From Lingula anatina (lineage: Eukaryota; Animalia; Brachiopoda), in the NCBI GenBank assembly GCA_051362555.1, contig CM120647.1, positions 16,468,651 through 16,532,650 on the forward strand: DNA of 64,000 bases, in the 5' to 3' direction. The position numbers were made by a program, and so were the translations under genes. This document shows, in pieces, positions 13,101 to 64,000 of the stretch (position 1 is its first letter; the number at the start of each line of letters is the position of its first letter). The notes under the pieces are model-generated. The model was not told where the DNA came from and searched no databases. It saw only the letters and a list, made by a program, of their open reading frames with translations.

Positions 13101-13357
13101 GACCCCATTCCCATACCTAGATCGATCTAGCAAGATCAACCCATCTCCGAGGGAATTCTCGCTAAATTACATTCAGCTTAAACGGCTTAAATGTCTGGCA
13201 CGCCTACTGAAGCTGCTAAACGATAATTAATTACCCCCCTAACAGCTTCAGAAGGTGTGCCAGACATCAAAGCCGCTTAAGCTGAGTGCAATTTAGCAAG
13301 AAACCCCTCGGAGACGGATCGATCTTGCTAGATCGATGTAGGTGTGGGAATGGGGTC
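13101..13357. mobile_element. Palindromic MITE (PIF/Harbinger Tourist-like), copy B
   Basis: The structure is TTA|GACCCCATTCCCATACCTAGATCGATCTAGCAAGAT ... ATCTTGCTAGATCGATGTAGGTGTGGGAATGGGGTC|TTA. The 3-bp TTA target-site duplication is typical of PIF/Harbinger. Confidence 0.88.
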
Positions 13358-22243: not shown

Positions 22244-22284
<41 letters not shown>

Positions 22285-28877: not shown

Positions 28878-28916
<39 letters not shown>

Positions 28917-32633: not shown

Positions 32634-32664
<31 letters not shown>

Positions 32665-41500: not shown

Positions 41501-44500
41501 GCCCCTTAAATAAACTATTACATGATCGTTATTTCAACTTGAAGCAAAACAATTTTATGAAAACATCTGATATAAATACTTTTGGTTAATAGTACAATAG
41601 AGAGTCACTGCGATTCAAATTCTGTTGTCTCTTCTAGATCATGTTCATTTTCATACAAAAAATATTTTCTGAAAGACAGTAATAGTAGATGTGGGTTTTT
41701 TCATGCTCATTCAAAAATAATTTTTCAAATCAAAGCAGCCATAGTTGCCCTTAATGAAAAAAAATAGACCCAGTATCCTTATTCATTAACAAGTCACAGC
41801 GGGTCTCACTTTCTGTTACTTCCTTTTCCAAGTAATCAAAACCTATTGTATTCAATTTGCACCTATGACTGTAAACCGCAAAGAAGTTATTTTTGTGCAT
41901 AATGTATTCCCAGCTCATATATTAATGCATCCTTTCACCTCATTCTTCCAGGTTACATCGGACCATGCGCCAGGTCTCTATTCCTGCCGTCAAACAGATT
42001 CCTCCATGACGCCTAGTTCACCAAGCACCGAGCAGTCCGTCGGGCATTTCTCTTATCCGTCACTTACCCGAGAGGCACCAGGAGTAAGCGTAGGCACTGG
42101 GGCAGACTACATGGCTTTATACAACTTGCTGCAACAAGAGTGTTACTCCACCAACATGCCCTCCAGCCTTCTCTGCAGCCTCCCCCGTCCGACACAAGTC
42201 CCCATCAAAACACGAGCGTCGTTTCTAGAGCTGCAGTTCATGCGTCTCCAGTTCAAAGCCAGGGATCAGGTGAGAGACTTACGCAGTGTGTATCTGGATC
42301 AACGACATCAGCTGGATGGGGAACGTCGTCAGGCTCTAGCATCCGTCACCAGTGCCGGCTCCGACCCTGTTAAACAAGCTATCAATCATCATTACGATAC
42401 GATTGAATACCAGCTGGTGGAGCGTGTGCAGAAGAGTCTACAGCTTCTAGAACAGTTCGTCTCTCAGAGGACAGACACGGAACACTCAAATCTTCTGACT
42501 GTCACTTGTGACGCAGACTTTGCACGCAGCTACGAAAGCCCCATTTCACCTGAAGCGCCATCTATACCAGAGACCTACAAAGCACCTGTTCCGAACAATC
42601 GTGAAAATTGCGACAATTTTACAAGTCCCATGACCACATCTCCTCCATCTTGTGGTAGCACAGTCGTGTCCTCCACAGTCACACTGACTCAGCGGAAACC
42701 CAAAGGAAAATGTCGTCCAGCTCCATACGTTCCACGCCCAAGTAACCAAAGCTTTTTCACAAGCCCACTTCGAAAATGGCTGTCTGAGAATGGATACAAC
42801 CTATTTCCTAGTCACAAGGTTATTATGGAACTGTCTGTCACGACGGGCCTGACTGTCACTCAAGTTACACGGTGGTTTGAGAACCAGAGGGCAAGACTTG
42901 CTAAAAGGGCAGCAAACTTATCATGAACTTGTCACAATCTAGAACTGTTCGTATGATCACAACTTTACAGTTGCCAAACAAACCTCATACTTCTCTTGAA
43001 CTGAAACTGTATGTACTATCAGAATACAAGACTGCCTAAGACACTTCATTCTAATCATGAACTAGGACTGTTTGTAGTCAGAATGTGATATTTTACTTGC
43101 CAAATAACAACCTCTGTTAATAGCCATAGAACCCCTTACAAAGTAAATGGTGTACTTCAAAAGAATATTAAATGTAAACTTGTGACTAATTATGTTAATA
43201 TTGTAAATATTTTTGTATCAGTGTGTGCAAAATTGGAACTATCTGTACATTTATCTGCCTAAGCATGTAAAATGAATCTTGTTCAGAGGTTTGATTTCAG
43301 TAATAATACTGTTATACAATGTTTCATTTCAAAATCTCATACTGTGTCAATCTTAATGGTAGTTAGTCTTTTCTCCAGAAAGTTTGTCAAATGTACAACT
43401 GGTTGCATAACATTTCACTTATCATTGTGACTAATTATTTATTCTATGGTATTTACATCTGAGGTCTCATGTCTGCCAAATGTTGCATGCACATCTTGTT
43501 TAATTGTTTCTATGTTACAGTAATAAAACAAAATATCATCAAATGCCTTTTTTCTTGGTGCACATTCTATACCCAATACTTGATGATAAGTATTTGTACT
43601 TGCAGTTATTTAGTAGACTTATAGAGAGTTTTCTCAGTCAAAAAACTATATCCCTACTGGTCACTTTCTGAATTTTCAACACCAGGAGAAGTCACATGTC
43701 CATATGTGACTTAATAGTTTATGGAAAGTGGAATTAACTTGATTCTAGGATGAGACTAACATCTTAAGATAATTCACAAATGAGCTTTTAGATGCCAGTC
43801 AACATTCAATTAGCATTCTTGAACTACAATAACTATGATAAGCTATCTGTGCAGAGCACAAAGAACCCCGTTACATCCTTTCATATCACCTACTTCAGGT
43901 TGAAATAATCCAAAATATTGTTTAAATAATTCTGTGACAACAACATGTTAACATGGATGAAAGTTGTAGAAACTGTAAAGCCTGATGATATAACTTGCAA
44001 TTTCTCATTGGATTTAGACCACTTCAAAAATGAAAAAAAAAAAATCAAAATGAGGGCTGAAAATCATGAAATCAGGCATCATCCTAAAAACTCTCACCCA
44101 TGTTTAGTACAACACAGCAAAACATATACATCAGGGTCTTTCTTTGTTTCCCTGCCTCTTTGAGAGGAGTTCACAATTCCTAATATGACATCTGTCTAAA
44201 ACTTTTCTGACCCAAGTAAAGTAGTAAAGAGTAAAGGATATATATCTGGGTCTTTCTTTCCCAGTTTCCCTGCCTCCTCCTCCTCTAGCTGTCCTTTCAT
44301 CTCCAACAGGTGCTTGATTTTCTGCTCAAAGTTGTTCACCCACTCACTGACTGGAAAAAGCAGTTGACACTCAGTGAATCAAATGCATTGAAAATGATTG
44401 GCAGGTAAATCAACTTAGATAATATTAACAGTGAATAAATCACCTGCAATGAAGATCAGCATACAGTAAATGGACTGCAAATTGATAAGCAGTTGACTGA

Positions 44501-45568
44501 CAAAATAGTTGAAGAATGGCTTGTCTTGCACTCAGTGACATCTATTTTGCTGCTCCTTATTGTAAATGATAACAGTGACCATTCTCCCTTTCACAACGAT
44601 TTCACAATGCAACTTTAGTCCAAAATGCATTAAGCAGAGAGCTGGATGAATAAAAACAAAATTAATAAAAAAAAAGTTTGGATCAAGAGTCTGCTGCATT
44701 GCACTTACTATTTTAGAGACCAAGCACACATTAGATAAAAGAAATTAAATGTGCAAGATTAAATAAGATATCCATCTCTACTTACTGTCAGACTGAGTCA
44801 GCTTATTAATGGGGATAGCTGCGCGTGCATGCATGATCCCACAACGATGTGGCATCTCATCTTCCTGAGGATATTCTGCACCGCTGTAGTAGTCAACAGA
44901 GAACACAATACGCAGGTAGAGTATCATCTTGTCCAGTACCTAAAGTATGCAGTTAAAGGATCAGGAAAGAAAAAAAAAATAGAAAAAAACTATTTTTTTT
45001 AATTTTGTTTACAAAATTTTGTTTGCAATAAGTCACTTTATCATTTCAACAGTATATTTTAGCCTAAGTTACCAAGTAAAATTATCTCAAAATGTTTATG
45101 TTGAAGATCATCTGAATATTTTTGCCATTGCAATTTAACGCTGAATAAACATGCTCAAGCTTCAGATCTAATAAACCTGCAGCAGCAGTCAACTCAGTTT
45201 GCAAGGGGACTTCATCAACTAACTAATGACCTGCTTTGCTGCTTCAGAAGTAAAAAGATTTTTTTCAGCCAAGAAGGCAAAGCTTTCCCCGGCAAACTGA
45301 CCTTCATCACTTTTTCATCTCTCTCTGGAGTGATCTCCCCGTTCTGGCCATCTTTCTTCTCCTCCAGTGCCTCCTCTCCCAGTAACTCCTCCTCCTCGTA
45401 ACTCCCCTCCTCTACCAAGTAGTCTGTTATGTTCTTCAACACTGGGTTTTTGGATACTAACCCAAAACTCTGAAAACCATGAGACATTCTTTATAAAGAG
45501 CTTTATACAGAGTGGACTTCTGTAATAAAAAAAATCCTGAAAATATAAATGCAGCTCTATATGGGAGT

Positions 45569-45618
<50 letters not shown>

Positions 45619-48600
45619 GGGGGGCGGGGGGGGGGGGGGATGGGGGGTACAAATACAACACCCAAGTAATAACCTGTTGCAAAAAAGAGCTTCAGATCCC
45701 TAAAACTGCTCTGAACATTAAGACCACAAATCTGGAATTTCTAGATAAATCCACAGTGGTCCAATTAAATGCAATGTTTTCTCTTTTTTTTTCAAAACAA
45801 GAAAGACCAGGCTTGGACTAACCTGACGGCAAATAACTGAGAATGGGGAACAGATTAGGTGAACCTTAAAAAGAAAAATACAATATGTGAAATTCACAAT
45901 TTTTCCCCATTGTTAAAGATTGAGTTATTACGATACCTCTTTCTCTTTGTCTCCCTTCTCGTCTCCGTCCTCCCAGAGCCCCCACTTCCTGTCCAGGACC
46001 TGGATGATCTTGGCGGTGTTTTTGATATCTTGTCTCATTATTGCGCGATGACACGTGATGCCGTTGATTGGGCGGATACGCTGCTTAATGTCGCGATTCA
46101 CTATAGCACCCATTTCACAGTCACGGAGCTGTAAGAAAAAAAATTCAACTTGGTCTGAACTTCCTCAAGATATTTAATAAGATGACACTTTTATCTAAAC
46201 AAATTTGGAAATTGTTGTAGATCTATTATTTTCAAATATATCTGACATGAAGTAAAACAAACAATGCATCCCCATCTCTGTTTCTCCCAAGAAATTACTA
46301 AAAAAAATTTTTGTTTAATGAAAAAAGGAAAAATTTGCATTTTTGTAGCCAAATTAAATCATCTTTTATGCATGGCAAAAATCTCTCAATTCCTGGCAGA
46401 GTAAAGAACTATCTTCCCCTTACCCTTATATTATTAAGATTCCAGCAGATATCCTTAATGTTGACATTGCGTTCAAATGTCACCCAGCCCCTCCTGAACC
46501 AGCGCCTCTCTGGCTGTGGGTCTTGAAGCGCCACTCTCATAAACCCTGGGTAACGCTTGCACATCTGGAAGAAGTAAGGGGACAGTATAGAGGTCACAGG
46601 TACTGCTTTTATTATTACTAATTGTGAGGGCTGATAATTTGTTCACAGGTTGTGTTTTGATCCTTGTGCAATGCTTGCACATGATGCATATCTGAAAGGA
46701 AGGGATATGCAGAGCAGCTCTCTTGCCGTCTCTCTCTTGCTCTATCGCGTGCGCACGCACACACACACACACACACACACACGGATATGTATATAACTAT
46801 GATCTTGTTTATTTATTTGTAGAAATTATAAAAAGTTAACCACTCACTGCTTCAACTTCCTGCTTGGTAATTGTAGGGGCCAGATTTCTCAGGAATATTG
46901 ACAGAGTTTGGTGCAGAGGTCTAGGTCTGGTGTCTGCCTCTTCTTTCTCTTCTCCTTCTTCAACCCCAGATTCTGAGACTGGGTTAAAAAATCAAAAACT
47001 GTTTAAATTGCACATCATCAACATCATCACCATCGTTACAATTTATACCAACAGTCCAATCTAGCAGACACCACTTTGAGTGAAAAGGACCATAGCCACA
47101 GATATCAGTTATTCATAAATGCAAGGAGTCCAGAATTTTCTTTCAAAATTGCATTATTGTACATAAAATATAGATAATATAAAAACCCTGCCCACCTCCT
47201 TTCTCCTCTCCCTGTTTCTCCTCTTTGGTGTCCGTCCCAGGGGCCTGCTCTCCTGTCCCTGGGGGTGCTGGTTCATCATCAACCCCAGGGGGCGCTGGCT
47301 CTGACTCAGAGTCAGATCCACTCTCAGATTCTGAGCCACTTTCGTAGCTGTATTCCGTCTTGTCACGATGGCGTTTCTTTTTCTTGTCCCTCTTCTCACT
47401 CTGGAGGAAGGAAAGACTGGCGCATTGTAACAATTCTTAATTTGAAAGCATTTCTAAGATTTGTGGTATTCGTTTTTTTTTTGTCAAAGATGCTTTATTA
47501 ATGATTTAACAAACATTTTGTTTTATTTCTCAGACAAGATACTGTCATGTTGAATTTAATTGTGCCTGAAAAGGTATTCATATCATGATGCTTCATTTTG
47601 ATTTGTGAAACATTATCATGGCTGTACAATAATAATGCTAAACAAGTATTTTTCCAAAATGGTTTTTCTTTATTACCTCCCCTTCTTCCTTGTCCTTCTG
47701 CTTGGAGAATTCCTCAGCCTTTTTCTGTAATTCTTCTTGTTCTGGATTTATATTTAGTTTAACAGGTTCCTGCTTTATTAAAGAAAAAATAAAAACAGTA
47801 TACATCAGACCTGTATGCTACTCATAGATAATACCAGAAAAACAACTTGACATTACTAGAAATTTTGTAAAAAAATTTTCCAAAGCAAAGATTTTTTTCC
47901 ATCAAATATATATCAAAACATAGTACAGGGAGGAACAAAATATTTTGATCAAAAATAAAAAGCAAACTTACGTTATCTGACTTTTGGCGATCTTCCCTTC
48001 TGCTGCTATCATCAGATGCCCTGTTTTTAAAAGTTCAAGGTCATTTAAAGGTCAAGATCATACTAAGGTTACAATATAGACAACTTAGTGTATAAACAAA
48101 GATGCTTTAAAAGATAACCTTAGTTAAACAAGTTTTTAAACTAAATTCTTTTTACCTGCCCCTATACTACTTCAGCAATGCATTCAGGGAATGGTGCAGA
48201 ATCCTCCTTGCCTAACCGACAAACTCAACTATACCCACCATATTTAGTGTCCAAACCCACTTGTACCCACCCTTTATCTGGTGTCTGTGACTCTGAGTTA
48301 GGTCTGCTTCTCCTTCCCTCCTCCAGTTTCTCTGCAGGCATCTCCAGTACCTTGAGGTCCTGCTCATTGCCTCCTTCCAGCAGTATTATGGCTGTAATAT
48401 TGAATTGTGTTAGGTGAGACACAAGGAATTGGCTGTGAAAATTGTGATAGCTGTGATAACTGAATATACAATTGTGTATTTAATACAGTGGAAATTTCCC
48501 AAATTATAATACCCCTACCCCAGTGAAGACACAACTCACCTGCATCCAACAACTTCACCAAATTATCCGTCTTCTCGATATCCACGCTACAACTGTCCAC

Positions 48601-51574
48601 CTTGCCCATCTCCATCAGCTGTGTAAAAACTCTCGCGCGAAACTTCAGCGCCCCCATCATCTCCTCGCGCCTCTTGTCGCACTCCTCGGGGTGGTACTTG
48701 GCCTTGAACCTTCAAAGACAACCAGAGAGAGCCACTGATGAGTTTATAAGGGTGAGGGACACTATTAAATGGTGGTCACATCTGTGTACACAGACATAGT
48801 GAACAATTTTTGGACTGGCAGAAACCACCTGTTTACCAACAATTTTTTTTAATCATGCAATACTTAAGTTAAACAATTTCTAGTAAATGCCAATTATTAA
48901 TTCAAAATCCCTCTCAATCTTTTCTTTCCTTTTTCTTCAAGTCATTTCACAAACTTCTGAATATCTGTATTTTATGGAACAACATCACTTGCTTTATTTC
49001 ATCACTTTAAACTTGGAGTCAAAATTGCTAAAGCAGTGAAATTTTACACACAATTCACATATTTCAACAAAAAAAAAATCGTTCTCCAGTAGTAACCATG
49101 ATGCACTTATGCAGATGCACTGTCACCCATCCAAACCTTACTATCTTACCATACCTACGTCCAGTCCTCCATCGAAGCAGCGTTATAAAACTCCACGCGA
49201 TTTAAATGATTTGACCTATTTATCTACCTAACACTTTGGCAGCTACTGCATTAAAAGCATGCAGAAGGATGATTGCTAGCTAGCTAAGGTACAAATAAAC
49301 GCGAGTCTTGGCAATCCAACGAAGAGCTTGTCTTTGGCGAAGGTCTTTGGCGCGAAATATTTACGAAGGTATAAAATTTCTTGCCATTTCTTTGTCGTGG
49401 ATGAGCTGGTGGGTGAAGAAATTTGGATTAGACACTCATGGGACAAGAAGACAGCTTTTAAGACAGAAAATCAGGGTAGCATGCTTATGTACCGTATCTG
49501 AAATTTCTATCAGAATTATTAAATGATAATTTTTCAGCATCTTGTAATTGAAGAATAGAAAATTTTCACCATTTTGTTATGGAATTTGCATATTGACAAA
49601 TTCAGTTACTATAAAGTTACTAATGTAAAAAGACAGATGAATTTATTCAAAATCCTCAAAGATAATATCAAAATTTATTTGTTAAAAGAGAAGTATAATG
49701 GATATGAAAGGCTACCACACAAACATCTGCCATCAAGCTGTCTCACTGTACCCCTGACATCAATTTATATAAGGAACGCAAAATTACTGATAAAATTGTG
49801 AAAATTCAACAATTATTTTAGGAGCACTTTGGACATAAATATACAAGAAAAATGTATATAAATATCTATAATATCTGTGAATAATAAAAAAAATTATTGA
49901 AAAATAAATTATTTGAGAAATTGAAATAAAGGGGCACTAAGCCCCTCTCCCCCCCCCCCAAAAAAATTTTTTTTTAACATTTGAATTTTGTATAATCCTT
50001 GATTATGCATTTCGTATTTTTGCTTATGCAAACATAAACTAAACAAGATTTCACAACTACTACATGCAACATATAACTCCATGATAAAAAAAAGATAAAA
50101 AAAACAACAACACATTATTTAAAAATTTCCCAAACTAATTCCACCTACCACTCTTCCTCTTTATGTTGAAGGAAGAAATCATTGATCTGCTGACGAGAGA
50201 AATCAATTTTATATTCGTTGTATTTTTTCACAGCATCCTGGTCACTAATGGTGTCGTCTTGCTGACCTAGAAATTGCTTGAAGGTCATCATGGGAGGCTG
50301 GGTCGGAAAGTCCGGCTCCTGACCTCTGGAAGTAGAATAATGACCATTGATCATTTATAATAATAATAATACTTAATAATAATACTTCATTACAAAATGC
50401 AACCCATTTGGTTGAAGTTTTCCATGAGAGACATATATTCTTTTCAATGGACACCGTTTTCTGTTCAGTCAATGTCTTTTTCTTACCAAAGTATTATCTG
50501 AAACTATTCTAGCACCCTTAAAGCATGACTAAATATTAGCCAGAGTTTCCAGACTTCATGGCCCCAGGTATGAATCCAGGCAGTAGTTACCTATGACCTG
50601 GATAATGTTGCTGTGGAGGGGGCATATCACCAGGTCCTGGACCCCAGCCATGGGGCGGGCCCGGGGGTCCTCCCCCACCCCCACCTCCTCCTCCGCCACC
50701 TCCATAAGGCATGTCATAGCCATAGGGGGCATCGTCCCTGAAAATAGACAGACATGTAATGTTTGAGGGTTCTTTAAATGAGAAAAACAAAGTTATCAAC
50801 TGATGACACAAGCAACAAGTGAAGGCATTGCAGACAGTTATCAGATATACATCCAAACTTACATTAGAGTGTTATAATATCAGCTGGTGACAGAAAATTT
50901 ACAAAATAATTGATATTGATATTTCATAGCCTGTTGACAAAGCCATTACTTGTTGCCTCAAACCTTGTCATCATTCTCAAAGTATAAAATACCCACCAAT
51001 CTCTTCTCATCCTCTTCATGGGGGGGCTGACATCATGACGGGAAGGGGAGTATCGATCCCGTCTTCCGCGCTCATAATCCCTGTACATATCTCGACTTCT
51101 CTCACGATTTCTGCTGCTCCAACTGTCTCTGTTCCTGTGGATTGTAAAACAAGGTATGGAGATAATCAGGGATGAGACTGTCTTTTAGTAAAAGAAGTCT
51201 GAAAAATTTGGCATGTTTCTTTTTTTTTAAATAAAGTTCACTTGAATGAAAACATCAAAGGACCAGAAAACTTGTCTTTACAGGGATTTGACGGCCATTT
51301 AGCATAAATATGGCATGGGGCCCAGGGTGCCTCTTTTACCAAGGGTACTTCTGGCTCCCAAAAAGTCGGAAAAGCACCGACAGTTGAAAAATCTCCTTGA
51401 TATCCCTGCAAATTAAGACACCCCCAAAGCCTGAGCTCATAGAAACCCTGCTCACCTAGAGTCATCCCATGGCTCTCTCCTCCTTTCCTCCCTCCTTCCT
51501 GCATAATCATCTCTTTCACGGCGAAATTTATCACGACCACGTCTTCTGTCGTATTCTTCATCACTGTCTCCCAT
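35567..51574 (-). CDS. SRRT: Serrate RNA effector molecule homologue (Ars2); 21 coding exons, ~901 aa
   Basis: Exons (5' to 3' on minus): 51456-51574, 50997-51134, 50591-50737, 50149-50325, 48540-48709, 48271-48391, 47972-48020, 47677-47769, 47196-47400, 46848-46978, 46424-46564, 45937-46128, 45302-45469, 44786-44939, 44242-44350, 39320-39473, 38827-39022, 38096-38198, 37821-37859, 37375-37404, 35567-35636. All phases are consistent and the total is 2706 nt. Hallmarks are the N-terminus [47 protein letters not shown], the zinc finger [24 protein letters not shown] and the C-terminus [16 protein letters not shown]. Confidence 0.96.
35741..35880. repeat. ~72-bp AT-rich direct repeat, 2 copies, in the last Ars2 intron
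   Basis: AAAATTTAACATTTT(T)AAATAATAAGACCTGTATAAATTAAAAT.TATA.TTCTTTTATTAA occurs twice. Confidence 0.85.
39520..39735 (-). mobile_element. Degenerate SINE-like remnant near the 3' end of the U12 intron
   Basis: GAAACCGAGGGTCCCTGGAGTAGAGGGTCCAC resembles the GAAACCGGAGTACCCGGAG..AACCCAC core of invertebrate tRNA-SINEs. An A-box-like GGTGAGGCCAGTG lies on the minus strand at the right end. Confidence 0.4.
40970..41085 (+). promoter_or_regulatory. Core promoter of the nested homeobox gene (three CCAAT boxes and TATA)
   Basis: CCAATC occurs at ~40976, ~40983 and ~41024. TATAAAA is at 41074-41080, about 200 nt upstream of the ATG at 41272. Confidence 0.65.
41272..42926 (+). CDS. Divergent TALE-class homeobox protein (spiralian SPILE/PADRE-like); 2 exons, ~338 aa, nested antisense in Ars2
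   Basis: Exon 1 is 41272-41313 ([14 protein letters not shown]|GTATGT). Exon 2 is 41952-42926, in frame after TTCTTCCAG. The C-terminal segment [43 protein letters not shown] aligns without gaps to the TALE pattern LRAWLxxHxxHPYPSxxxKxxLAxxTGLTxxQVxNWFxNxRRR. A central helical block ([34 protein letters not shown]) resembles the PADRE domain as I recall it. AATAAA is at 43522. Confidence 0.85.
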
Positions 51575-54500
51575 GCTTGTACCTTCCGACTCTAAAGATC
51601 TAAAATACATAAATGTAAATCTACAATTTGAGATATAAGAGATTAAAAAATGCATCACCATAACATTGCTAATAAGTTTTCTTTTACGTGAAAATTAGGG
51701 GATTCCGTAGAGTATACATTATAAACTAGTAGATAAAATTCTACAGACAAAGGGGGTTATTTTTAAACAATCGTTTAACCCAGATTATAAAAAATATAAC
51801 AACGAAATCAATTTGTTAAACCACTGTCGTGAATTTTGGTGATTTATGATAATTCTATTTCATTTCATGTCTCTGTTTTTTCTATTAAACGAGCAAAGGA
51901 TAGTCTCTTTTCTTTTCTAACGCTATCGTTAATGGAAATGAGAGGAAAAATTTCCCGGCAAAAATAACTAGAGTGCATTCACGACGTTTTAAGACAAGCA
52001 TTCTATAAAGACGCATGCTACAAGAACAGATCCATTTTCTTACATACCCCTTAAAATTCTGGGCTTGGAAATTCAAAAACCAAGCTGATCAGGAGAGAAA
52101 AATATGACTGATTTATTTAAAATCACGCCGATCGGCCATGTGCACGCATTCCCACAATTCCTCAAAATGACCTAGTTTCAACATCCGCTTTCTACTTTCT
52201 TAGTGTTGTGTGGAGTTTTTTCAACTGTTATAAATGTTTGAAAATCAAATTAGATGGGCCTTCTTCATGTTAGATCTACATATATAGGTAACACTATTAA
52301 TGTTAATGACACGAAGTGTTTCATCACAATATAATGACACTTAAACCAATAAGACGATAGGTGCAGCCTAGGCTACTGAGTACAGATTCCTCAACTTCTT
52401 GGAAGTTGGAGAAGATTGCAGAAAACTTACTAACCAGAAGAGAAAGACTTCACACATTGGAGAAATTTAATGAATGATGTGGGGACAGTGGTGGGACGTT
52501 CACATGAAATTATCAGTGTGTTAGCCATGAAGGAATTCATATTGGAGAGGAACGTATTACCCCCACCCTGTAACTTTCTGTAACTTTCACTTTTCAAACA
52601 GTTTTTTACATTTTATTGTTCATCTATGTCAAAGCTGTTGAAATAAAATGCTTTTGTAATTACCTGTGGACTTTTTATTAGTTTTAATCACGTTTAATCC
52701 AGCCCATTGAAATACAATGTTAGAATCTTCAATTTACACCCGCAGTCAATGACTTGCCGCATTTTCGTTGGCTAGCTCTAAGGTAATTTTATGTGAACAA
52801 GTAGCTCATAATAATTTCACAGAGGAAGTCCAAGTATACAATGTATCAATCCTATGTTCATCATATTGATGCGTCAAAAGTAGTACTGAGCCATCACACA
52901 AATTACAGGTAGTCAAAAAAGAAAACGAGGAAGAGCATCCTGCAAGAGGGCGACCATATCCTGTTGCTTTATTTAGAAATCAATATCTGTAGTTGAGTGT
53001 AATAGATTGTATTATGGAGAATTTGAGGTTACATGTAGTTTCATTATTCAGTTTTATCACATGTAATCAGAATGTTGTAATACTTACAACATTGGGATTA
53101 TCTTGTTGAAATAAAGCCCATTTGATGACAGTTGTGTTCTTCATCTTATTTTCTTTATGTGTGCACATGGTAAAGTGATGATAATAAGTTTTCAATGGCA
53201 GGTCTCTTACAAGACAATTGCCGTTTTCTAACTCCAGCTTTAGAATTGAGAACACAAATGTACATATTACCCACAAATTGACTATCTCCACTTTACCATG
53301 AGGAAAATTCGGAGCTTGACATTAAGGGTTGGGTTGTTTATTTTGCAACCGCTTTTCCCTCTCAGACAACCAAATCTTGACCAGCAGTTGCTCAACTATG
53401 CAACTGATTTGAATTTAAGGGTTTTGTAACACTTAATTATCATCCAGACACCGGAATGAGGTTTTCCTGCATCTAATTATTCAATAATGCATCTATCTTT
53501 GTGCTGATTTTAAACAATAAAAATCTAGTAAATATAGAATATAGGCGTTTATATTTCTTGTTGCAATGTATACGCATGGGGAACTCAAAGTGTTAATGGT
53601 CAATTTAACACTTTTATATTCTGAGGTGAGATAACAAACGACGTAAATTCATCCCTAAACAAGATTTTATCACAAAAATTGACCACGAGTGTATAGGCTA
53701 CAATCCCATGACGTTTTATTGGTTTAATTGTGCTTTTTTTTTTTTTTTCAGAGTTATGAGACCCTAATAACAGACTTTTATTAAACAAATGCATTATTTT
53801 GTTTTATCAACAATAAAATCTGAACTAAGATTTTTAGAAAAGTTGCTGGCAGGGATTTGGAGTACTAAATGGTGTCATTAATTCAGCGTTGAAACGGGGA
53901 TCGTGGGTGCTCAGGCACAAGAGAAATTTTAGAAACCGACTTTTTCCTTTTTACCCTAAAATCGCAATTAAGACGCCACTGTAAGATGACGTGTGTAAAT
54001 GTTAATCAATTTAGTCACTGAACACTAAAGATTTATCAATTACCCGAAAGAATGTATGTAAGGCAGTAAATGGTCAGAAACAGAAACCTCAGTGCAAAAC
54101 AAAATGAAAATAAAAACATCTGAAGTCTTCTTAGGCCTACTAGGAACGTTCCAAGCAAGCCTATCTATGAAAGCGATCAAACTTGAATTGATTAAGTAGC
54201 CTTTCCCGGTATAACAGCAAGTCATACCACCAGTTAACCGTCTTCAGCAGAAAAACGTTATCTTCTCGGCGGAATTATTTGCCAAATATGTTTTACTCAA
54301 AATTTCCATCGTTTCATTTGCTTAAATGGAAATCAAACCAGTAATTAAACATTTGATTTTTAACATTTTTAATTCCCTCTTAATTAATTAACTAATTAAG
54401 ACCCTAAGGGGACTCGCTTAAACTAAACCACGGCTGTTATAAACCGCCTTTCATCCAGTTGTAGGGCTCTTTAATATCATAGGGAAGCCAAAATTAAACT

Positions 54501-56435
54501 TCTCAAACGCGTTCTCAAACGCGGCTTCTTGTAGCCTACATCATGAACTTCAACGTCCATGATCGAGGACTGGGGTTACGTGGGATGAAATACGAATTAT
54601 CCGTGACAATGTTGAAAGTTTCCATCTAATCTTCCATTGTGAACGAAACTAGGGGCGCCGGTTTAAACAAAATTTAAAAACACGATTAGACGTTGTAGTT
54701 ATCAGGGCGCTCTCGTGGGTCCTAGCAAAATACCTTTTGCATAAAAATACGGTATACTTTAGAAAGTTTACATTAAATGATCGATTTAAAACGAACATAT
54801 TGCTGGTCGTTAGAATAAAGTCTGCGTCGTCAATAATATTTCCTTTCTCTTTAGCTAAAAGTCCATAGATTGGTGCCACAGATCTTGTACTTAAATTGAG
54901 CTGTAGCTAACTCCGTATGTTCTGCATTTCATCAAAATGTGCTATCTTCTCGGTGGGATTATCAAAGAGAACCTTTTTATTTTTTTTTACAAAAGCCTCT
55001 ATTGCTTTTAACAAGCACACATTTTGTCTTTTCATGCCTTCCTTTCCTTTTCTGCGCCCTTGCTTCTCAAGACTGTTCATGTGTTCATACAGTACCCGGG
55101 GCAAGTCCGCGGTCGTCATTTGAACGAGTAAAGACTACTCAATACTAAAACCGCCCAGGTGTGAACAGCTGTGGACCTCGTCGCACTGTATATCGTCAAA
55201 GGCGAAAGCAAACGTTATCTCAGTGCAAAACAAAATAAAAATAAATAAGTAACTGAAGTCATCTAACTAGGAACGTTCCGAGCAGGCCTATCAATGAAAG
55301 CCAACGAACTTGAATTGAATCAGTAGCTTTTCCGGTATAACAGCACGTCATACCACCTGTTAACCGTGTTCAGCAGAAGAATGTTATCTTCTCGGTGGAA
55401 TTATTTGCAAAATATGTTTTATTCAAAATTTCCATCTCTGGTACCGTGGTTCGAGACCCACCAAGTATAGTACCGTATATATTTTTCCAAAATTATGCAA
55501 CGCAAAGTCACGAGTTCGAGTCCCGGATGAGGCACGTCAGTCCATCACGACAACGACCGAGCAACTGAATCGGGACCCGGAAGTCACGAGAACGAATCAG
55601 GGCTCTCGTGGGTCCTAGCAAATTTCCTTTTGTAGTCCATCCTCTATTGCTTTTAACAAGCACACATTTTGTCTTCTCATGCCCCTCCTTTCCTTTCTTG
55701 CGCCCTTGCTTCTCAAGACTGTTCATGTGTTCATACAGTACCCGGGGCAAGTCTGCAGTCGTCATTTGAAAGAGTAAAGACTACTCAATACTAAAACCGC
55801 CCAGGTGTGAACAGCTGTGGACCTCATCGCACTGTATATCGTCAAAGGCGACAGCAAACGTTATCTCAGTGCAAAACAAAATAAAAATAAAAGTGTATCT
55901 GAAGTCATCTAACTAGGAACGTCCCTAGCAGGACTATCAATGAAAGCCAACGAACTTGAATTGAATCAGTAGCTTTTCCGGTATAACAGCACGTCATACC
56001 ACCTGTTAACCGAGTTCAGCAGAAAAATGTTATCTTCTCGGTGGAATTATTTGCAAAATATGTTTTATTCAAAATTTCCATCGCTGTAATTGCTTATATG
56101 GAAATTGCACCAGTTATCAAACATTTGAATGTTTTTCCCCTCTCTTCTTAAGATCTCGCAAAAACTAAAGCACTCCAGTTGTGAACCGCCTTTGATCCTA
56201 TTGTACTTTTTAATATCTTGGGTAAAACCCAAATCAATCTTAACATAAAACAATCTTCTACCTCCGTGTCGGGTTCTGAAACACGCATGGGTTCCTGTAC
56301 ATCATAAATTTTACCGTTCGTGATATATGCGGCACCTGGTTTATCGATTGGGATAGCAGATACACACGTTCATCCAAGCTGGCCCTCTCCGTGGCAAGGT
56401 TGAAAGTTCCCATCCGATCATTACGTATCAACGAA

Positions 56436-56532
56436 GCTGGCGTGGCTCCGTGGTAACGATGCTGTCTCGCATACAGTCAGACACTGGTACCCTGGTTCGA
56501 GACCCACCAAGTATAGTACCGTATACTTTTTT
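56436..56532 (+). ncRNA. Putative ~97-nt Pol III-type cassette (tRNA-like or vault-RNA-like); also at 58931-59027, 60352-60448, 61771-61867 and 63194-63290
   Basis: It has an A-box-like T(G/A)GCTCCGTGG, a B box GGTTCGAGACC, a terminal hairpin AAGTATA-GTACCG-TATACTT and a T6 terminator. The acceptor, D and T stems do not pair, so it is not a canonical tRNA. Confidence 0.45.
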
Positions 56533-56602
56533 CCAAAATTAAATTTTGAATATTCCGTTTGGTTACTATAAGAGGAAACTCGTAAGTACGGAGGGTGGGC
56601 GG

Positions 56603-56804
56603 GTCTGTCACGGCGCAGTCGGTAGCGTGCTTGGATGCAAATGAGATACCAGAAGCGCCATCAACCATGGCAACGCAAAGTCACGAGTTCGAGTCCCGGA
56701 TCAGGCACGTCAGTCCATCACGACAACGACCGAGCAACTGAATCGGGACCCGGAAGTCACGAGAACGAATCAGGGCTCTCGTGGGTCCTAGCAAATTACC
56801 TTTT
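56603..56804 (+). ncRNA. Putative ~200-nt tRNA-headed structured cassette (SINE-like or Pol III ncRNA); copies start at ~59098, 60519, 61938 and 63360
   Basis: It has a D-arm/A box GGCGCAGTCGGTAGCGT and a B box GAGTTCGAGTCC. Downstream hairpins are GTCCCGGATCAG/CTGAATCGGGAC and GGACC..CACGAGA/TCTCGTG-GGTCC. It ends in TTTT, and TATAAG lies ~35 nt upstream. Confidence 0.45.
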
Positions 56805-59800
56805 GCATAAAAATACGGTATACTTTAGAAAGTTTACATTAAATGATCCATTTAAAACGAACATATTGCAGGTCGTTAGAATAAAGTCTGCGTCGTCAAT
56901 AATATTTCCTTTCTCTTCAGTTAAAAGTCCATAGATTGGTGACACAGATCTTGTACTTAAATTGAGCTGTAGCTAACTCCGTATGTTCTGCATTTCATCA
57001 AAATGTGCTATCTTCTCGGTGGGATTATCAAAGAGAACATTTTTATTTTTTTTACAAAAGCCTCTATTGCTTTTAACAAGCACACATTTTGTCTTTTCAT
57101 GCCTTCCTTTCCTTTTCTGCGCCCTTGCTTCTCAAGACTGTTCATGTGTTCATACAGTACCCGGGGCAAGTCCGCGGTCGTCATTTGAACGAGTAAAGAC
57201 TACTCAATACTAAAACCGCCCAGGTGTGAACAGCTGTGGACCTCGTCGCACTGTATATCGTCAAAGGCGAAAGCAAACGTTATCTCAGTGCAAAACAAAT
57301 TAAAAATAAATAAGTAACTGAAGTCATCTAACTAGGAACGTTCCGAGCAGGCCTATCAATGAAAGCCAACGAACTTGAATTGAATCAGTAGCTTTTCCGG
57401 TATAACAGCACGTCATACCACCTGTTAACCGTGTTCAGCAGAAGAATGTTATCTTCTCGGTGGAATTATTTGCAAAATATGTTTTATTCAAAATTTCCAT
57501 CTCTGGTACCGTGGTTCGAGACCCACCAAGTACAGTACCGTATATATTTTTCCAAAATTATGCAACGCAAAGTCACGAGTTCGAGTCCTGGATGAGGCAC
57601 GTCAGTCCATCACGACAACGACCGAGCAACTGAATCGGGACCCGGAAGTCACGAGAACGAATCAGGGCTCTCGTGGGTCCTAGCAAATTTCCTTTTGTAG
57701 TCCATCCTCTATTGCTTTTAACAAGCACACATTCTGTCTTCTCATGCCCCTCCTTTCCTTTCTTGCGCCCTTGCTTCTCAAGACTGTTCATGTGTTCATA
57801 CAGTACCCGGGGCAAGTCCGCAGTCGTCATTTGAAAGAGTAAAGACTACTCAATACTAAAACCGCCCAGGTGTGAACAGCTGTGGACCTCATCGCACTGT
57901 ATATCGTCAAAGGCGACAGCAAACGTTATCTCAGTGCAAAACAAAATAAAAATAAAAGTGTATCTTGTATGTCGTTAGAATAAAGTCTGCGTCGTCAATA
58001 ATATTTCCTTTCTCTTCAGTTAAAAGTCCATAGATTGGTGACACAGATCTTGTACTTAAATTGAGCTGTAGCTAACTCCGTATGTTCTGCATTTCATCAA
58101 AATGTGCTATCTTCTCGGTGGGATTATCAGAGAGAACATTTTTTTTTTTTTTTTTACATTTTGTCTTTTCTTGCCTACCTTTCCTTTTCTGCGCCCTTGC
58201 TTCTCAAGACGGTTCATGTGTTCATACAGTACCCGGGGCAAGTCCGCGGTCGTCATTTGAACGAGTAAAGACTACTCAATACTAAAACCGCCCAGGTGTG
58301 AACAGCTGTAAACCTCGTCGCACTGTATATCGTCAAAGGCGAAAGCAAACGTTATCTCAGTGCAAAACAAAATAAAAAATAAAAAAGTATCTGAAGTCAT
58401 CTAACTAGGAACGTTCCGAGCAGGCCTATCAATGAAAGCCAACGAACTTGAATTGAATCAGTAGCTTTTCCGGTATAACAGCACGTCATACCACCTGTTA
58501 ACCGTGTTCAGCAGAAAAATGATATCTCCTCGGTGGAATTGTTTGCAAAATATGTTTTATTTTAAATTTCCATCGCTGCAATTGCTTATATGGAAATTGC
58601 ACCAGTTATTAAACATTTGAATGTTTTTTCCCCTCTCTTCTTAAGATCTCGCAAAAATTAAAACACGTCTGTTGTGAACCGCCTTTGATCCCATTGTATT
58701 CTTTAATATCTTGGGTAAAGCCAAAATCAATTTGAGTATGAAACAAACTCCTAGCTCCGTGTCGGGTTCTGAAACACGCATGGGTTCCTGTACATCATGA
58801 ATTTTACCGTTCATGATAAATGCGGCACCTGGTTTATCGAATGAGATAGCAGATACACACATGTTCATCCAAGCTGGCCCTCTCCGTGGCAAGGTTGAAA
58901 GTTCCCATCCGATCATTACGTATCAACGAAGCTGGCGTGGCTCCGTGGTAACGATGCTGTCTCGCATACAGTCAGACACTGGTACCCTGGTTCGAGACCC
59001 ACCAAGTATAGTACCGTATACTTTTTTCCAAAATTAAATTTTGAAAATTCCGTTTGGTTACTATAAGAGGAAACTCGTAAGTACGGAGGGTGGGCGGGTC
59101 TGTCACGGCGCAGTCGGTAGCGTGCTTGGATGCAAATGAGATACCAGAAGCGCCATCAACCATGGCAACGCAAAGTCACGAGTTCGAGTCCCGGATCAGG
59201 CACGTCAGTCCATCACGACAACGACCGAGCAACTGAATCGGGACCCGGAAGTCACGAGAACGAATCAGGGCTCTCGTGGGTCCTAGCAAATTACCTTTTG
59301 CATAAAAATACGGTATACTTTAGAAAGTTTACATTAAATGATCCATTTAAAACGAACATATTGCAGGTCGTTAGAATAAAGTCTGCGTCGTCAATAATAT
59401 TTCCTTTCTCTTCAGTTAAAAGTCCATAGATTGGTGACACAGATCTTGTACTTAAATTGAGCTGTAGCTAACTCCGTATGTTCTGCATTTCATCAAAATG
59501 TGCTATCTTCTCGGTGGGATTATCAGAGAGAACATTTTTTTTTTTACAAAGTCCTCTATTGCTTTTAACAAGCACACATTTTGTCTTTTCATGCCCTCCT
59601 TTCCTTTTCTGCGCCCTTGCTTCTCAAGACGGTTCATGTGTTCATACAGTACCCGGGGCAAGTCCGCGGTCGTCATTTGAACGAGTAAAGACTACTCAAT
59701 ACTAAAACCGCCCAGGTGTGAACAGCTGTAAACCTCGTCGCACTGTATATCGTCAAAGGCGAAAGCAAACGTTATCTCAGTGCAAAACAAAATAAAAAAT

Positions 59801-62800
59801 AAAAAAGTATCTGAAGTCATCTAACTAGGAACGTTCCGAGCAGGCCTATCAATGAAAGCCAACGAACTTGAATTAAATCAGTAGCTTTTCCGGTATAACA
59901 GCACGTCATACCACCTGTTAACCGTGTTCAGCAGAAAAATGATATCTCCTCGGTGGAATTGTTTGCAAAATATGTTTTATTTTAAATTTCCATCGCTGCA
60001 ATTGCTTATATGGAAATTGCACCAGTTAGTAAACATTTGAATGTTTTTTTCCCCTCTCTTCTTAAGATCTCGCAAAAATTAAAACACGCCTGTTGTGAAC
60101 CGCCTTTGATCCCATTGTACTCTTTAATATCTTGGGTAAAGCCAAAATCAATTTGAGTATGAAACAAACTCCTAGCTCCGTGTCGGGTTCTGAAACACGC
60201 ATGGGTTCCTGTACATCATGAATTTTACCGTTCATGATAAATGCGGCACCTGGTTTATCGAATGGGATAGCAGATACACACATGTTCATCCAAGCTGGCC
60301 CTCTCCGTGGCAAGGTTGAAAGTTCCCATCCGATCATTACGTATCAACGAAGCTGGCGTAGCTCCGTGGTAACGATGCTGTCTCGCATACAGTCAGACAC
60401 TGGTACCCTGGTTCGAGACCCACCAAGTATAGTACCGTATACTTTTTTCCAAAATTAAATTTTGAATATTCCGTTTGGTTACTATAAGAGGAAACTCGTA
60501 AGTACGGAGGGTGGGCGGGTCTGTCACGGCGCAGTCGGTAGCGTGCTTGGATGCAAATGAGATACCAGAAGCGCCATCAACCATGGCAACGCAAAGTCAC
60601 GAGTTCGAGTCCCGGATCAGGCACGTCAGTCCATCACGACAACGACCGAGCAACTGAATCGGGACCCGGAAGTCACGAGAACGAATCAGGGCTCTCGTGG
60701 GTCCTAGCAAATTACCTTTTGCATAAAAATACGGTATACTTTAGAAAGTTTACATTAAATGATCCATTTAAAACGAACATATTGCAGGTCGTTAGAATAA
60801 AGTCTGCGTCGTCAATAATATTTCCTTTCTCTTCAGTTAAAAGTCCATAGATTGGTGACACAGATCTTGTACTTAAATTGAGCTGTAGCTAACTCCGTAT
60901 GTTCTGCATTTCATCAAAATGTGCTATCTTCTCGGTGGGATTATCAGAGAGAACATTTTTTTTTTTACAAAGTCCTCTATTGCTTTTAACAAGCACACAT
61001 TTTGTCTTTTCATGCCCTCCTTTCCTTTTCTGCGCCCTTGCTTCTCAAGACGGTTCATGTGTTCATACAGTACCCGGGGCAAGTCCGCGGTCGTCATTTG
61101 AACGAGCAAAGACTACTCAATACTAAAACCGCCCAGGTGTGAACAGCTGTAAACCTCGTCGCACTGTATATCGTCAAAGGCGAAAGCAAACGTTATCTCA
61201 GTGCAAAACAAAATAAAAAATAAAAAAGTATCTGAAGTCATCTAACTAGGAACGTTCCGAGCAGGCCTATCAATGAAAGCCAACGAACTTGAATTGAATC
61301 AGTAGCTTTTCCGGTATAACAGCACGTCATACCACCTGTTAACCGTGTTCAGCAGAAAAATGATATCTCCTCGGTGGAATTGTTTGCAAAATATGTTTTA
61401 TTTTAAATTTCCATCGCTGCAATTGCTTATATGGAAATTGCACCAGTTATTAAACATTTGAATGTATTTCCCCTCTCTTCTTAAGATCTCGCAAAAATTA
61501 AAACACGCCTGTTGTGAACCGCCTTTGATCCTATTGTACTCTTTAATATCTTGGGTAAAGCCAAAATCAATTTGAGTATGAAACAAACTCCTAGCTCCGT
61601 GTCGGGTTCTGAAACACGCATGGGTTCCTGTAAATCATGAATTTTACCGTTCATGATAAATGCGGCACCTGGTTTATCGAATGAGATAGCAGATACACAC
61701 ATGTTCATCCAAGCTGGCCCTCTCCGTGGCAAGGTTGAAAGTTCCCATCCGATCATTACGTATCAACGAAGCTGGCGTAGCTCCGTGGTAACGATGCTGT
61801 CTCGCATACAGTCAGACACTGGTACCCTGGTTCGAGACCCACCAAGTATAGTACCGTATACTTTTTTCCAAAATTAAATTTTGAAAATTCCGTTTGGTTA
61901 CTATAAGAGGAAACTCGTAAGTACGGAGGGTGGGCGGGTCTGTCACGGCGCAGTCGGTAGCGTGCTTGGATGCAAATGAGATACCAGAAGCGCCATCAAC
62001 CATGGCAACGCAAAGTCACGAGTTCGAGTCCCGGATCAGGCACGTCAGTCCATCACGACAACGACCGAGCAACTGAATCGGGACCCGGAAGTCACGAGAA
62101 CGAATCAGGGCTCTCGTGGGTCCTAGCAAATTACCTTTTGCATAAAAATACGGTATACTTTAGAAAGTTTACATTAAATGATCCATTTAAAACGAACATA
62201 TTGCAGGTCGTTAGAATAAAGTCTGCGTCGTCAATAATATTTCCTTTCTCTTCAGTTAAAAGTCCATAGATTGGAGACACAGATCTTGTACTTAAATTGA
62301 GCTGTAGCTAACTCCGTATGTTCTGCATTTCATCAAAATGTGCTATCTTCTCGGTGGGATTATCAGAGAGAACATTTTTTTTTTTTTACAAAGTCCTCTA
62401 TTGCTTTTAACAAGCACACATTTTGTCTTTTCATGCCCTCCTTTCCTTTTCTGCGCCCTTGCTTCTCAAGACGGTTCATGTGTTCATACAGTACCCGGGG
62501 CAAGTCCGCGGTCGTCATTTGAACGAGTAAAGACTACTCAATACTAAAACCGCCCAGGTGTGAACAGCTGTAAACCTCGTCGCACTGTATATCGTCAAAG
62601 GCGAAAGCAAACATTATCTCAGTGCAAAACAAAATAAAAAATAAAAAAGTATCTGAAGTCATCTAACTAGGAACGTTCCGAGCAGGCCTATCAATGAAAG
62701 CCAACGAACTTGAATTGAATCAGTAGCTTTTCCGGTATAACAGCACGTCATACCACCTGTTAACCGTGTTCAGCAGAAAAATGATATCTCCTCGGTGGAA

Positions 62801-64000
62801 TTGTTTGCAAAATATGTTTTATTTAAAATTTCCATCGCTGCAATTGCTTATATGGAAATTGCACCAGTTATTAAACATTTGAATGTTTTTTTCCCCTCTC
62901 TTCTTAAGATCTCGCAAAAATTAAAACACGCCTGTTGTGAACCGCCTTTGATCCCATTGTACTCTTTAATATCTTGGGTAAAGCGAAAATCAATTTGAGT
63001 ATAAAACAAACTCCTAGCTCCGTGTCGGGTTCTGAAACACGCATGGGTTCCTGTACATCATGAATTTTACCGTTCCTGATAAATGCGGCACCTGGTTTAT
63101 CGAATGGGATAGCAGATACACACATGTTCATCCAAGCTGGCCCTCTCCGTGGCAAGGTTGAAAGTTCCCATCCGATCATTACATATCAACGAAGCTGGTG
63201 TGGCTCCGTGGTAACGATGCTGTCTCGCATACAGTCAGACACTGGTACCCTGGTTCGAGACCCACCAAGAATAGTACCGTATACTTTTTTCCAAAATTAA
63301 ATTTTGAAAATTCCGTTTGGTTACTATAAGAGGAAACTCGTAAGTACGGAGGGTGGGCGGTTCTGTCACGGCGCAGTCGGTAGCGTGCTTGGATGCAAAT
63401 GAGTTACCAGAAGCGCCATCAACCATGGCAACGCAAAGTCACGAGTTCGAGTCCCGGATCAGGCACGTCAGTCCATCACAACAACGACCGAGGAACTGAA
63501 TCGGGACCCGGAAGTCACGAGAACGAATCAGGGCTCTCGTGGGTCCTAGCAAATTACCTTTTGCATAAAAATACGGTATACTTTAGAAAGTTTACATTTA
63601 ATGATCCATTTAAAACGAACATATTGCAGGTCGTTAGAATAAAGTCTACGTCGTCAATAATATTTCCTTTCTCTTCAGTTAAAAGTCCATAGATTGGTGA
63701 CACAGATCTTGTACTTAAATTGAGCTGTAGCTAACTCCGTATGTTCTGCATTTCATCAAAATGTGCTATCTTCTCGGTGGGATTATCAGAGAGAACATTT
63801 TTTTTTTACAAAAGCCTCTATTGCTTTTAACAAGCACACATTTTGTCTTTTCATGCCCTCCTTTCCTTTTCTGCGCCCTTGCTTCTCAAGACGGTTCATG
63901 TGTTCATACAGTACCCGGGGCAAGTCCGCAGTCGTCATTTGAACGAGTAAAGACTACTCGATACTAAAACCGCCCAGGTGTGAACAGCTGTGGACCTCGT

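Follow-up and report, generated by a model that had tools for sequence, protein, structure and literature searches.

What kind of element is the tandem repeat beside the SRRT/ARS2 gene of the brachiopod Lingula anatina, each full unit of which carries two Pol III-like cassettes? The initial annotation of this locus, which lies within a 64,000-nucleotide stretch of contig CM120647.1 (the window), left two interpretations, an array of an uncharacterised Pol III ncRNA pair or a satellite amplified from SINE heads. A third reading, beyond these two, fits best: the array is a Lingula tandem repeat of high copy number with two broken tRNA-like cassettes, and we lean toward their origin from a decayed pair of neighboring tRNA genes that was amplified as DNA.

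Organization of the array

The features of the array and its neighborhood are as follows.

38792..52134 (approximate ends), minus strand: SRRT/ARS2, the neighboring single-copy gene outside the repeat, with the start codon near 51576
54088..64000, plus strand: tandem array of the 1419-1423-bp unit (repeat comparison, head-to-tail joint), continuing past the right end of the window
54088..54655, plus strand: old, diverged spacer edge copy (~77% identity), which stops where cassette 1 has just begun
54701..55440, plus strand: partial unit, consisting of the cassette 2 3′ end and spacer
55438..55632, plus strand: deletion variant in which cassettes 1 and 2 are each reduced to the 3′ half and fused, cassette 1 retaining the B box, hairpin and T run
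56436..56532, plus strand: cassette 1, copy 1
56603..56804, plus strand: cassette 2, copy 1
57503..57697, plus strand: deletion variant, second copy
58931..59027, plus strand: cassette 1, reference copy, 97 nt
59062..59068, plus strand: TATA-like element, 36 nt ahead of the point where the tRNA-like part of cassette 2 starts
59098..59299, plus strand: cassette 2, reference copy, ~202 nt (A box at 59106, B box at 59181, T4 ending at 59299)
59300..60351, plus strand: spacer of the reference unit, ~1050 bp
60352..60720, plus strand: cassettes 1 and 2, copy 3
61771..62139, plus strand: cassettes 1 and 2, copy 4
63194..63562, plus strand: cassettes 1 and 2, copy 5

The left end of the array adjoins SRRT/ARS2, which was used as context and as a strand control. 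The assignment to Lingula agrees with a BMP7 exon whose sequence is identical to that in L. anatina. The start of the array, previously placed at 56436, is actually near 54088/54701, and the array extends beyond the end of the window. The description of the units as highly homogenised holds for the four right-hand units (98.1-99.2% identity to the reference) but not for the left part, a mosaic of 93-98% segments, the two deletion variants, which both lack the two A boxes, and the 77% edge copy; the copy starting at 56436 is itself interrupted after ~1070 bp. Contigs of single-copy depth (DNA run X1) span the edge copy with few differences. A Pfam scan of five open reading frames of the unit (77-102 aa) gave no match.

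Pol III anatomy and tRNA relics

Cassette 1 starts at 56436, 58931, 60352, 61771 and 63194, with the B box 58 nt further on, and cassette 2 begins 70 nt past the T6 of cassette 1 in 5/5 copies, in agreement with the two same-strand cassettes per unit noticed initially. Both cassettes carry type-2 Pol III anatomy, namely an A box, a B box at a workable distance and a run of four or more T. None of 5000 dinucleotide shuffles produced two such A-box/B-box/T4 cassettes on the same strand of a unit, and 5/5000 produced at least one. In the reference copy of cassette 1, the A box (58938-58948) deviates from the consensus at one position, such that it is found with an 11-nt pattern and missed by a 12-nt pattern at one mismatch, a correction to the annotated box; the B box (58989-58999) is followed by a 7/7-bp hairpin (59004-59023) and T6.

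Both cassettes keep tRNA arms at canonical places, the anticodon arm in cassette 1 and the D arm and acceptor stem in cassette 2. The anticodon-type arm of cassette 1 (58956-58972) is intact (5/5 bp, 7-nt loop), with the acceptor (2/7), D (1/4) and T (2/5) stems broken. The tRNA-like domain of cassette 2 (59098-59202) comprises an acceptor stem of 5/5+2 bp, a D arm of 4/4, a T stem of 3/5 and ~30 extra nt; it is followed by a 3′ extension that includes a duplicated T-arm segment and hairpins. By criteria set after the arms were seen, 170/100000 shuffles reproduced the anticodon arm of cassette 1 at its canonical place and 183/100000 the D arm and acceptor stem of cassette 2. The two cassettes cannot be aligned with each other between the boxes (p 0.77), and neither cassette is unusual in its folding as a whole (z +0.5 and -1.1), the reverse strand folding equally well.

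That neither cassette is a canonical tRNA, as initially proposed, is upheld by the broken arms, by the 0 tRNAs that ARAGORN finds in the window and by the lack of an Rfam tRNA match; a functional tRNA gene is rejected because neither ARAGORN nor the Rfam tRNA model recognises a complete cloverleaf. 5S, U-snRNA and 7SL, which the initial annotation had not seen either, are excluded by Rfam, with no match at the gathering score and, up to E 10, solely chance-level JUMPstart and mir-1842 fragments, isolated cassettes included; nor does the unit have an Rfam match to 7SK. Scans for a telomerase template and the 5S box C were negative. The Sm-like and PSE-like matches are short, AT-rich and of the chance type. 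A retrozyme or ribozyme satellite was rejected, there being no Rfam ribozyme match and, in a scan with a hammerhead core motif, nothing but a single stemless match on the minus strand; a Helentron or MITE (hairpin and T-run) was rejected as well, given that the repeat has neither terminal inverted repeats nor dispersed ends.

When the box and flank pattern of cassette 1 was searched for in viral contigs, 20/20 matching loci overlapped ARAGORN tRNA calls, 14/20 of them Ser or Leu tRNAs, an excess that is partly inherent in the spacing of the pattern; between the boxes, only 5/20 matches resemble cassette 1 at p<0.05. The one match of the cassette 2 pattern is a tRNA-Ile(TAT), with which cassette 2 also shares the 5′ end. 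Metagenome scans for the long-spaced box pattern and for the 3′ hairpin of cassette 2 gave 0 matches each.

Could one of the cassettes be a still-unknown spiralian vault RNA, a class that has a type-2 promoter, pairs its 5′ and 3′ ends and occurs in multicopy clusters? Apart from boxes A and B and the pairing of their ends, vault RNAs have little in common, and their sequences have been reported from deuterostomes and Trypanosoma (PMC7058938). Cassette 1 is of the right size (97 nt), and the 3′ end of its A box and the flank of its B box could form 4/4 pairs; the ends of cassette 2 are predicted to pair. However, no vault model of Rfam matches up to E 10, isolated cassettes included; cassette 1 is often deleted, and its ends pair no better than those of shuffles (982/2000 equally well); and the hundreds of copies would far exceed the reported vault clusters. 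This identification appears very improbable.

Sequence variation between units

Among the homogeneous units, variation in the two cassettes (4/636 and 4/297) is no lower than in the spacer (24/2534; p 0.64 and 0.53); mutation of the cassettes at the spacer rate, which the initial annotation had named as part of what would refute it, is thus what is seen among these units. The pooled counts in the window (10/1159 for cassette 2 vs 133/5937 for the spacer) give an apparent contrast that is rejected because the diverged segments span mostly spacer; the like-for-like count of homogeneous units shows no lower variation in cassette 2.

Copy number and dispersal

Three of the 11 available DNA runs were analyzed. 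In these, the copies number roughly in the hundreds and form a heterogeneous family in which the unit takes several lengths; they are linked head to tail, and foreign flanks are few. The head-to-tail joint 59869->58450 is present in DNA contigs, which give periods near 1420, 1002, 1118 and 866-883 for such joints and in places lack cassette 1 through deletion. Copy number estimation from read depth, proposed in the initial annotation, gave a summed unit depth of ~280-590x single-copy in two runs, a value inflated by contig overlap. Depth peaks in the A-box, B-box and 3′-end bins of cassette 2 (~1860, 1310 and 1670x single copy vs a spacer median of 310), which may reflect blocks conserved across subfamilies or else fragmentation of contigs. 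Run X11 (organism B) yielded 43 records, the listed pieces of which have a depth of 2-4, with none over an ARS2 exon; these matches may be carry-over from organism A and were not counted as conservation.

These data bear on the possibility that the array is a satellite made from one or two retroposed copies of a tRNA-derived SINE, or from a dimeric SINE, which inserted close to each other and were then tandemly amplified. SINE heads typically combine retained boxes with a decayed cloverleaf, cassette 2 could be parsed as head, body and 3′ hairpin, a tRNA-headed element, LinSINE1, exists in Lingula (PMC4824008), and RNA reads include diverged, truncated copies within other transcripts. Furthermore, in one variant (2 contigs) the terminator of cassette 2 is followed by an A-rich run, as in a retroposed copy, and a 13-nt near-direct repeat, at chance level, surrounds the linker and cassette 2. 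Against this origin, the many dispersed copies with unrelated flanks expected of a SINE were not found: only 4 in 100 contigs placed on the unit run on into unlike sequence, and the best listed loose ends comprise 2-7 and 1-10 contigs, whereas a dispersed element at a distance of 600 bp reaches 105-120. The few foreign flanks and the head-to-tail arrangement of the family do not fit an abundant dispersed SINE. The TATA-like element and the 70-nt linker, which a retroposed transcript would lack, are covered as deeply as cassette 2, the terminator of cassette 1 follows directly after the tRNA part, and the supplements on bivalve SINEs contain no exact motif of the window. MetaSINEs, which include LinSINE1, are defined by a 66-bp Meta domain directly behind the tRNA head (PMC4824008). 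Thus, of the initial interpretation, the type-2 Pol III anatomy stands, and the derivation from SINE heads is weakened because foreign flanks are few at the cassette edges and because the cassettes end in separate T-runs and a TATA-like element precedes cassette 2, in the fashion of tRNA genes; on the whole, an origin from SINEs is unlikely.

RNA reads and the case for a possible small-RNA family

The three raw RNA runs analyzed (of nine) are 150-nt paired libraries prepared by PolyA or Oligo-dT selection or of unspecified type, which would miss short non-polyadenylated RNAs. They contain 136 reads, none 99% alike and without pile-ups of starts or ends at the cassette ends. In the stranded run X15, all cassette 2 reads are antisense and derive from diverged copies.

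The alternative under which the array is a working multicopy Pol III small-RNA family, with a stable ~200-nt cassette 2 RNA with paired ends, cassette 1 as an optional partner and the spacer as a carrier, is conceivable, though we consider it doubtful. Cassette 2 combines a good A box, an exact B box, the TATA-like element and T4, and its ends are predicted to form a 13-bp stem (59116-59131/59280-59295) that closes directly before T4, most predicted pair probabilities being 0.87-1.0. The depth peaks fall on the motif blocks of cassette 2, and, by eye, variant contigs and reads seen at loose ends and indels alter the loop and the bulge near the 3′ hairpin. There are precedents both for stabilization by paired ends, in 4.5SI RNA (PMC3440375), and for hundreds of tandem genes, in 4.5SH (PMC7279448). 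However, the end-pairing energy is reached in 183/2000 shuffles, the substitution rate is not lower among the homogeneous units, the X15 reads of cassette 2 are antisense, and the array includes members without both A boxes. An uncharacterised Pol III ncRNA pair may still apply: some family members have lost cassette 1, the cassettes of the homogeneous units mutate at the spacer rate and a sense pile-up was not seen, but the libraries could not capture such RNAs.

Proposed origin of the repeat

In the preferred scenario of a decayed tRNA gene pair, one unit would have captured two same-strand tRNA genes together with their flanks, cassette 1 having a geometry of the Leu/Ser type and the 5′ half of cassette 2 being Ile-like. 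The unit would have increased in number by unequal crossing-over and gene conversion, which would also have carried identical cloverleaf-breaking changes from copy to copy, and a local duplication of the T-arm segment could have given cassette 2 its insert and 3′ extension. TFIIIC probably still binds the cassettes, and Pol III would yield ~95- and ~200-nt RNAs, at a low level or at few stages, as with OAX and PolIII/TAN. Such RNAs are likely to lack a selected role, and any effect on the host would more likely be exerted through TFIIIC-bound chromatin beside ARS2. The exact B boxes in spite of the broken cloverleaves and the end stem of cassette 2 fit selection on transcription and run counter to this best explanation, against which the depth peaks over cassette 2 and the variant with the A-rich run also count; a selected RNA function of cassette 2 is possible.

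Comparison with known systems

The closest parallels are found in amphibians, in OAX/satellite 1 of Xenopus, PolIII/TAN of Cynops and Rana/polIII, where a tRNA-derived segment likewise lies in a tandem repeat; these repeats are reported to lack a confirmed parent SINE, and PolIII/TAN to be transcribed in vitro (PMC10702118; PMC12054243). By the same source, tRNA-derived tandem repeats are known mainly from amphibians and rodents, with an unconfirmed link to SINEs (PMC10702118). The Lingula repeat shares with OAX, PolIII/TAN and the 4.5SH type a tRNA-related cassette in a long, high-copy head-to-tail unit. Whereas PolIII/TAN and Rana/polIII have ~250-360-nt units with one tRNA-like segment each (PMC10702118; PMC12054243), the brachiopod repeat has a 1.42-kb unit with two unrelated relics that possess their own terminators. 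Literature searches, with subscription papers, Repbase and figures outside their coverage, found no published description of it.

Among Lingula repeats, the Helenus TRIMs of L. anatina also contain tRNA-derived A and B boxes; tandem arrays have been reported in one fish family, and the three Lingula consensus sequences differ, by eye, from the unit (PMC10886601). Identity with a Helenus TRIM was rejected, the array containing neither an LTR pair nor the primer-binding motif. The 7.3-kb repeat at human 1q23.3 similarly has kilobase-scale units of the tRNA type in variable copy number, and a boundary role has been proposed for it; it is described as a tRNA repeat (PMC4041453), in contrast to the Lingula cassettes with their broken cloverleaves and no ARAGORN call.

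In rodents, the Pol III unit of 4.5SH likewise has A and B boxes and, upstream, a TATA-like box, and it is present in hundreds of copies in long (4-5-kb) tandem units (PMC7279448), and 4.5SI is of tRNA-related origin and has paired ends (PMC3440375). Unlike the products envisaged for the Lingula cassettes, the 4.5SH and 4.5SI RNAs are abundant and proven (PMC7279448; PMC3440375); 4.5SH is derived from 7SL/B1, with one gene per unit (PMC7279448), and the Lingula repeat has no sequence relationship to either. That Lingula possesses its own abundant Pol III RNA derived from a tRNA gene, an invertebrate counterpart of these rodent arrays, is a tentative proposition; if true, there would be hundreds of tandem cassette 2 genes, each with a second tRNA-derived unit ahead of it. 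Should cassette 2 prove to be both expressed and under constraint, brachiopods, a phylum with barely described small RNAs, would have a new lineage-specific Pol III RNA. The Lingula unit combines two unlike tRNA relics and their gene-like flanks, in an array where old, deleted and freshly homogenised copies coexist, which supports the view that satellite DNA can arise straight from tRNA genes, bypassing a mobile intermediate.

Array structure and neighborhood

A 1423-bp reference unit can be aligned across the window from position 54088 to its right end. The initial annotation described the units as highly homogenized, which holds for the three right-hand neighbors of the reference unit (99.2, 99.2, and 98.1% identity to it) but not for the left part of the array, which is a mosaic: it contains a copy at 54088 with 77% identity, incomplete units, and a deletion variant present twice. 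The principal features are as follows.

54088..64000 (+): head-to-tail array of 1.42-kb units, continuing beyond the window
55438 and 57503: deletion variant, 3′ half of cassette 1 joined to 3′ half of cassette 2
58931..59027 (+): cassette 1, reference copy
59098..59299 (+): cassette 2, reference copy
left of the array (-): SRRT/ARS2

The 77% edge copy is covered at single-copy depth in the DNA sequencing run X1, and therefore the array edge is not an assembly artefact. In the unit at 56436, the first 595 bp are nearly identical to the reference whereas the next 473 bp hold 19 differences, a break such as recombination or conversion would give. Unequal exchange and conversion are established processes in satellites.

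Two further high-copy repeats lie between ARS2 and the array, at 52505-52874 and 53460-54070; the latter, with more than 100 different flanks, is a dispersed mobile element. At 52135-52504 (+), stranded reads of the RNA-seq run X15 point to an RNA on the plus strand that comes from single-copy DNA and runs divergently to the ARS2 5′ end, toward the array, possibly reflecting a bidirectional promoter. A stop-to-stop frame of 378 aa encoding a C-terminal TALE/KN homeobox (41790-42926, +) runs opposite to ARS2, between its exons, and is apparently a nested intronless gene. Farther to the left are a tandem pair of paralogs (17300-23440 and 26800-33510, +; exons 70-75% identical), one exon of which matches the sodium:neurotransmitter symporter family; an exact 389-bp tandem duplication (27815-28594, 100% identity), which is either recent or an assembly artefact; two copies, 80-85% alike, of a 265-bp palindromic MITE-like element (7039-7304 and 13097-13361); and the first coding exon of a BMP7/BMP5-8 gene (7604-8191, -), with 132 residues identical to a Lingula anatina protein and the next matches, from molluscs and other phyla, at 38-53%; this exon identified the host as Lingula.

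Cassette anatomy

The two-cassette layout proposed in the initial annotation is present in all five complete pairs, and two A-box/B-box/T4 units on one strand were obtained in none of 5000 shuffles. As also proposed there, neither cassette folds as a canonical tRNA: ARAGORN and Rfam checks gave no tRNA, the Rfam search placed the unit and its cassettes in no family, and neither cassette qualifies as a functional tRNA gene. Cassette 1 keeps the arm at the anticodon position (5/5 bp with a 7-nt loop), with the D, T, and acceptor stems broken. Cassette 2 keeps the D arm (4/4) and the acceptor stem (5/5+2); about 30 extra bases precede its T stem (3/5), and the sequence extends some 95 nt further, an extension that includes a second version, 76% identical, of the T-arm segment. 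Under criteria set post hoc, the kept arms recur in 170 (cassette 1) and 183 (cassette 2) of 100000 shuffles. The between-box regions of the two cassettes are not alignable to each other.

A pattern derived from cassette 1 matched 20 loci in viral contigs, all at ARAGORN tRNA calls (8 Ser, 6 Leu), and that derived from cassette 2 had a single match, a tRNA-Ile(TAT). Because the spacing of the former pattern is biased to long-arm tRNAs, only 5 of the 20 loci resemble cassette 1 between the boxes (p < 0.05), and cassette 2 yielded one match, the putative isotypes, Ser/Leu for cassette 1 and Ile for cassette 2, are leads rather than assignments.

The only stable fold of cassette 1 is its 3′ hairpin (z +0.5). 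For cassette 2, folding z-scores are -1.1 for the whole and -2.3 from 59116, with -1.9 and -2.6 on the reverse strand; a 13-bp stem (59116-59131/59280-59295) that ends directly before T4 is well predicted, its duplex energy being matched by 183 of 2000 shuffles. Next to the B box of cassette 1, position 59002 lies in a C-C mismatch; two other variants have a standard pair there, through a change on one side in X1 contigs and on the other side in the deletion variants of the window (55448/57513), which hints faintly that the stem is maintained.

Copy number and dispersal

An X1 contig of 2950 bp aligns to 50100-52584, showing 16 differences and 9 gaps; the DNA of X1 therefore comes from the species of the window or a very close one. 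In X1, single-copy sequence has a depth of about 87, and in a second DNA run, X3, of about 35. The summed depth of the unit is approximately 370-590 (X1) and 280-590 (X3) times these values, which is not a copy number, and individual variant contigs reach up to 15-30 times single-copy depth; accordingly, the safe reading of the read-depth check proposed in the initial annotation is tens to hundreds of copies.

By likeness to one unit, 1029 X1 contigs fall into classes of at least 99% (169), 95-99% (232), 90-95% (500), and lower (128). Contig joints place the units head to tail, at periods near 1420, 1002, 1118, and 866-883, and some deletions take out most of cassette 1. The initial annotation had considered that the cassettes might match abundant dispersed SINEs. 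However, only 4 in 100 contigs continue past the repeat into unlike sequence. Among the loose ends listed, those with the best support comprise 2-7 contigs each (with 166 weaker ones besides), compared with 105 and 120 contigs at the edge of the dispersed element at 53462. The cassettes thus move as part of the unit and do not constitute an abundant SINE.

DNA depth peaks at the A box, B box, and 3′ end of cassette 2 and is low over cassette 1. The peaks count against a satellite derived from a decayed tRNA gene pair, our preferred reading; their cause may be conservation across subfamilies or fragmentation of the contigs. Among homogeneous units, the cassettes are as variable as the spacer, in line with mutation at the spacer rate; with low counts and recently formed copies, this test has little power. 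A role for cassette 2 as a selected small-RNA gene appears rather unlikely.

Expression

Three of nine raw RNA-seq runs were sampled (about 6, 6, and 25% of each), from PolyA, Oligo-dT, or unspecified libraries of samples other than the source of the window. Reads on the repeat numbered 67, 22, and 47 out of 9.5, 12.4, and 11.1 million, none at 99% likeness and five at 95-99%; 66-91% of them continue into unlike sequence, the depth over cassette 1 is below 1, and read starts or ends do not pile up on the unit in these three runs. These reads look like diverged pieces within other transcripts. In X15, exons of minus-strand ARS2 give the first mate on plus, and all cassette 2 reads share this orientation and hence are antisense; a sense trace (depth 0.64) covers the deletion variant at 80% likeness. 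Given the library types and sample origins, the reads neither demonstrate nor exclude short Pol III products.

Origin and comparison with known systems

The repeat combines tandem organization, type-2 promoter motifs, tRNA relic arms, subfamilies, and few foreign flanks. Two neighboring tRNA genes with their flanks would have been captured in one unit and amplified through unequal exchange, with cassette 2 probably remodeled via local duplication. TFIIIC binding may persist, and transcription would be low or stage-limited; the roles of A and B boxes, TFIIIC, and upstream TATA-like boxes are those described in accessible parts of PMC7279448 and PMC7058938.

Listings from literature searches of open-access text contained no paper on the Lingula repeat. 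The accessible portions of the bivalve SINE supplements of PMC11481361 contain no exact motif from the window. The Lingula genome has a tRNA-headed SINE, LinSINE1 (excerpts of PMC4824008). The cassettes do not qualify as an abundant SINE, nor does the repeat belong to the TRIM Helenus as far as accessible parts of PMC10886601 describe it. Vault RNA features for comparison came from portions of PMC7058938, PMC10491885, and PMC550661. Judged against the accessible text of PMC10702118 and PMC12054243, the repeat is built like the OAX (Xenopus) and PolIII/TAN (Cynops) arrays in its DNA arrangement, and, by that of PMC7279448, it structurally resembles the rodent 4.5SH arrays, its transcription being predicted. 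The repeat is real and belongs with the tRNA-derived Pol III tandem repeats; what is new is that each unit holds two different relics and that the host is a brachiopod.
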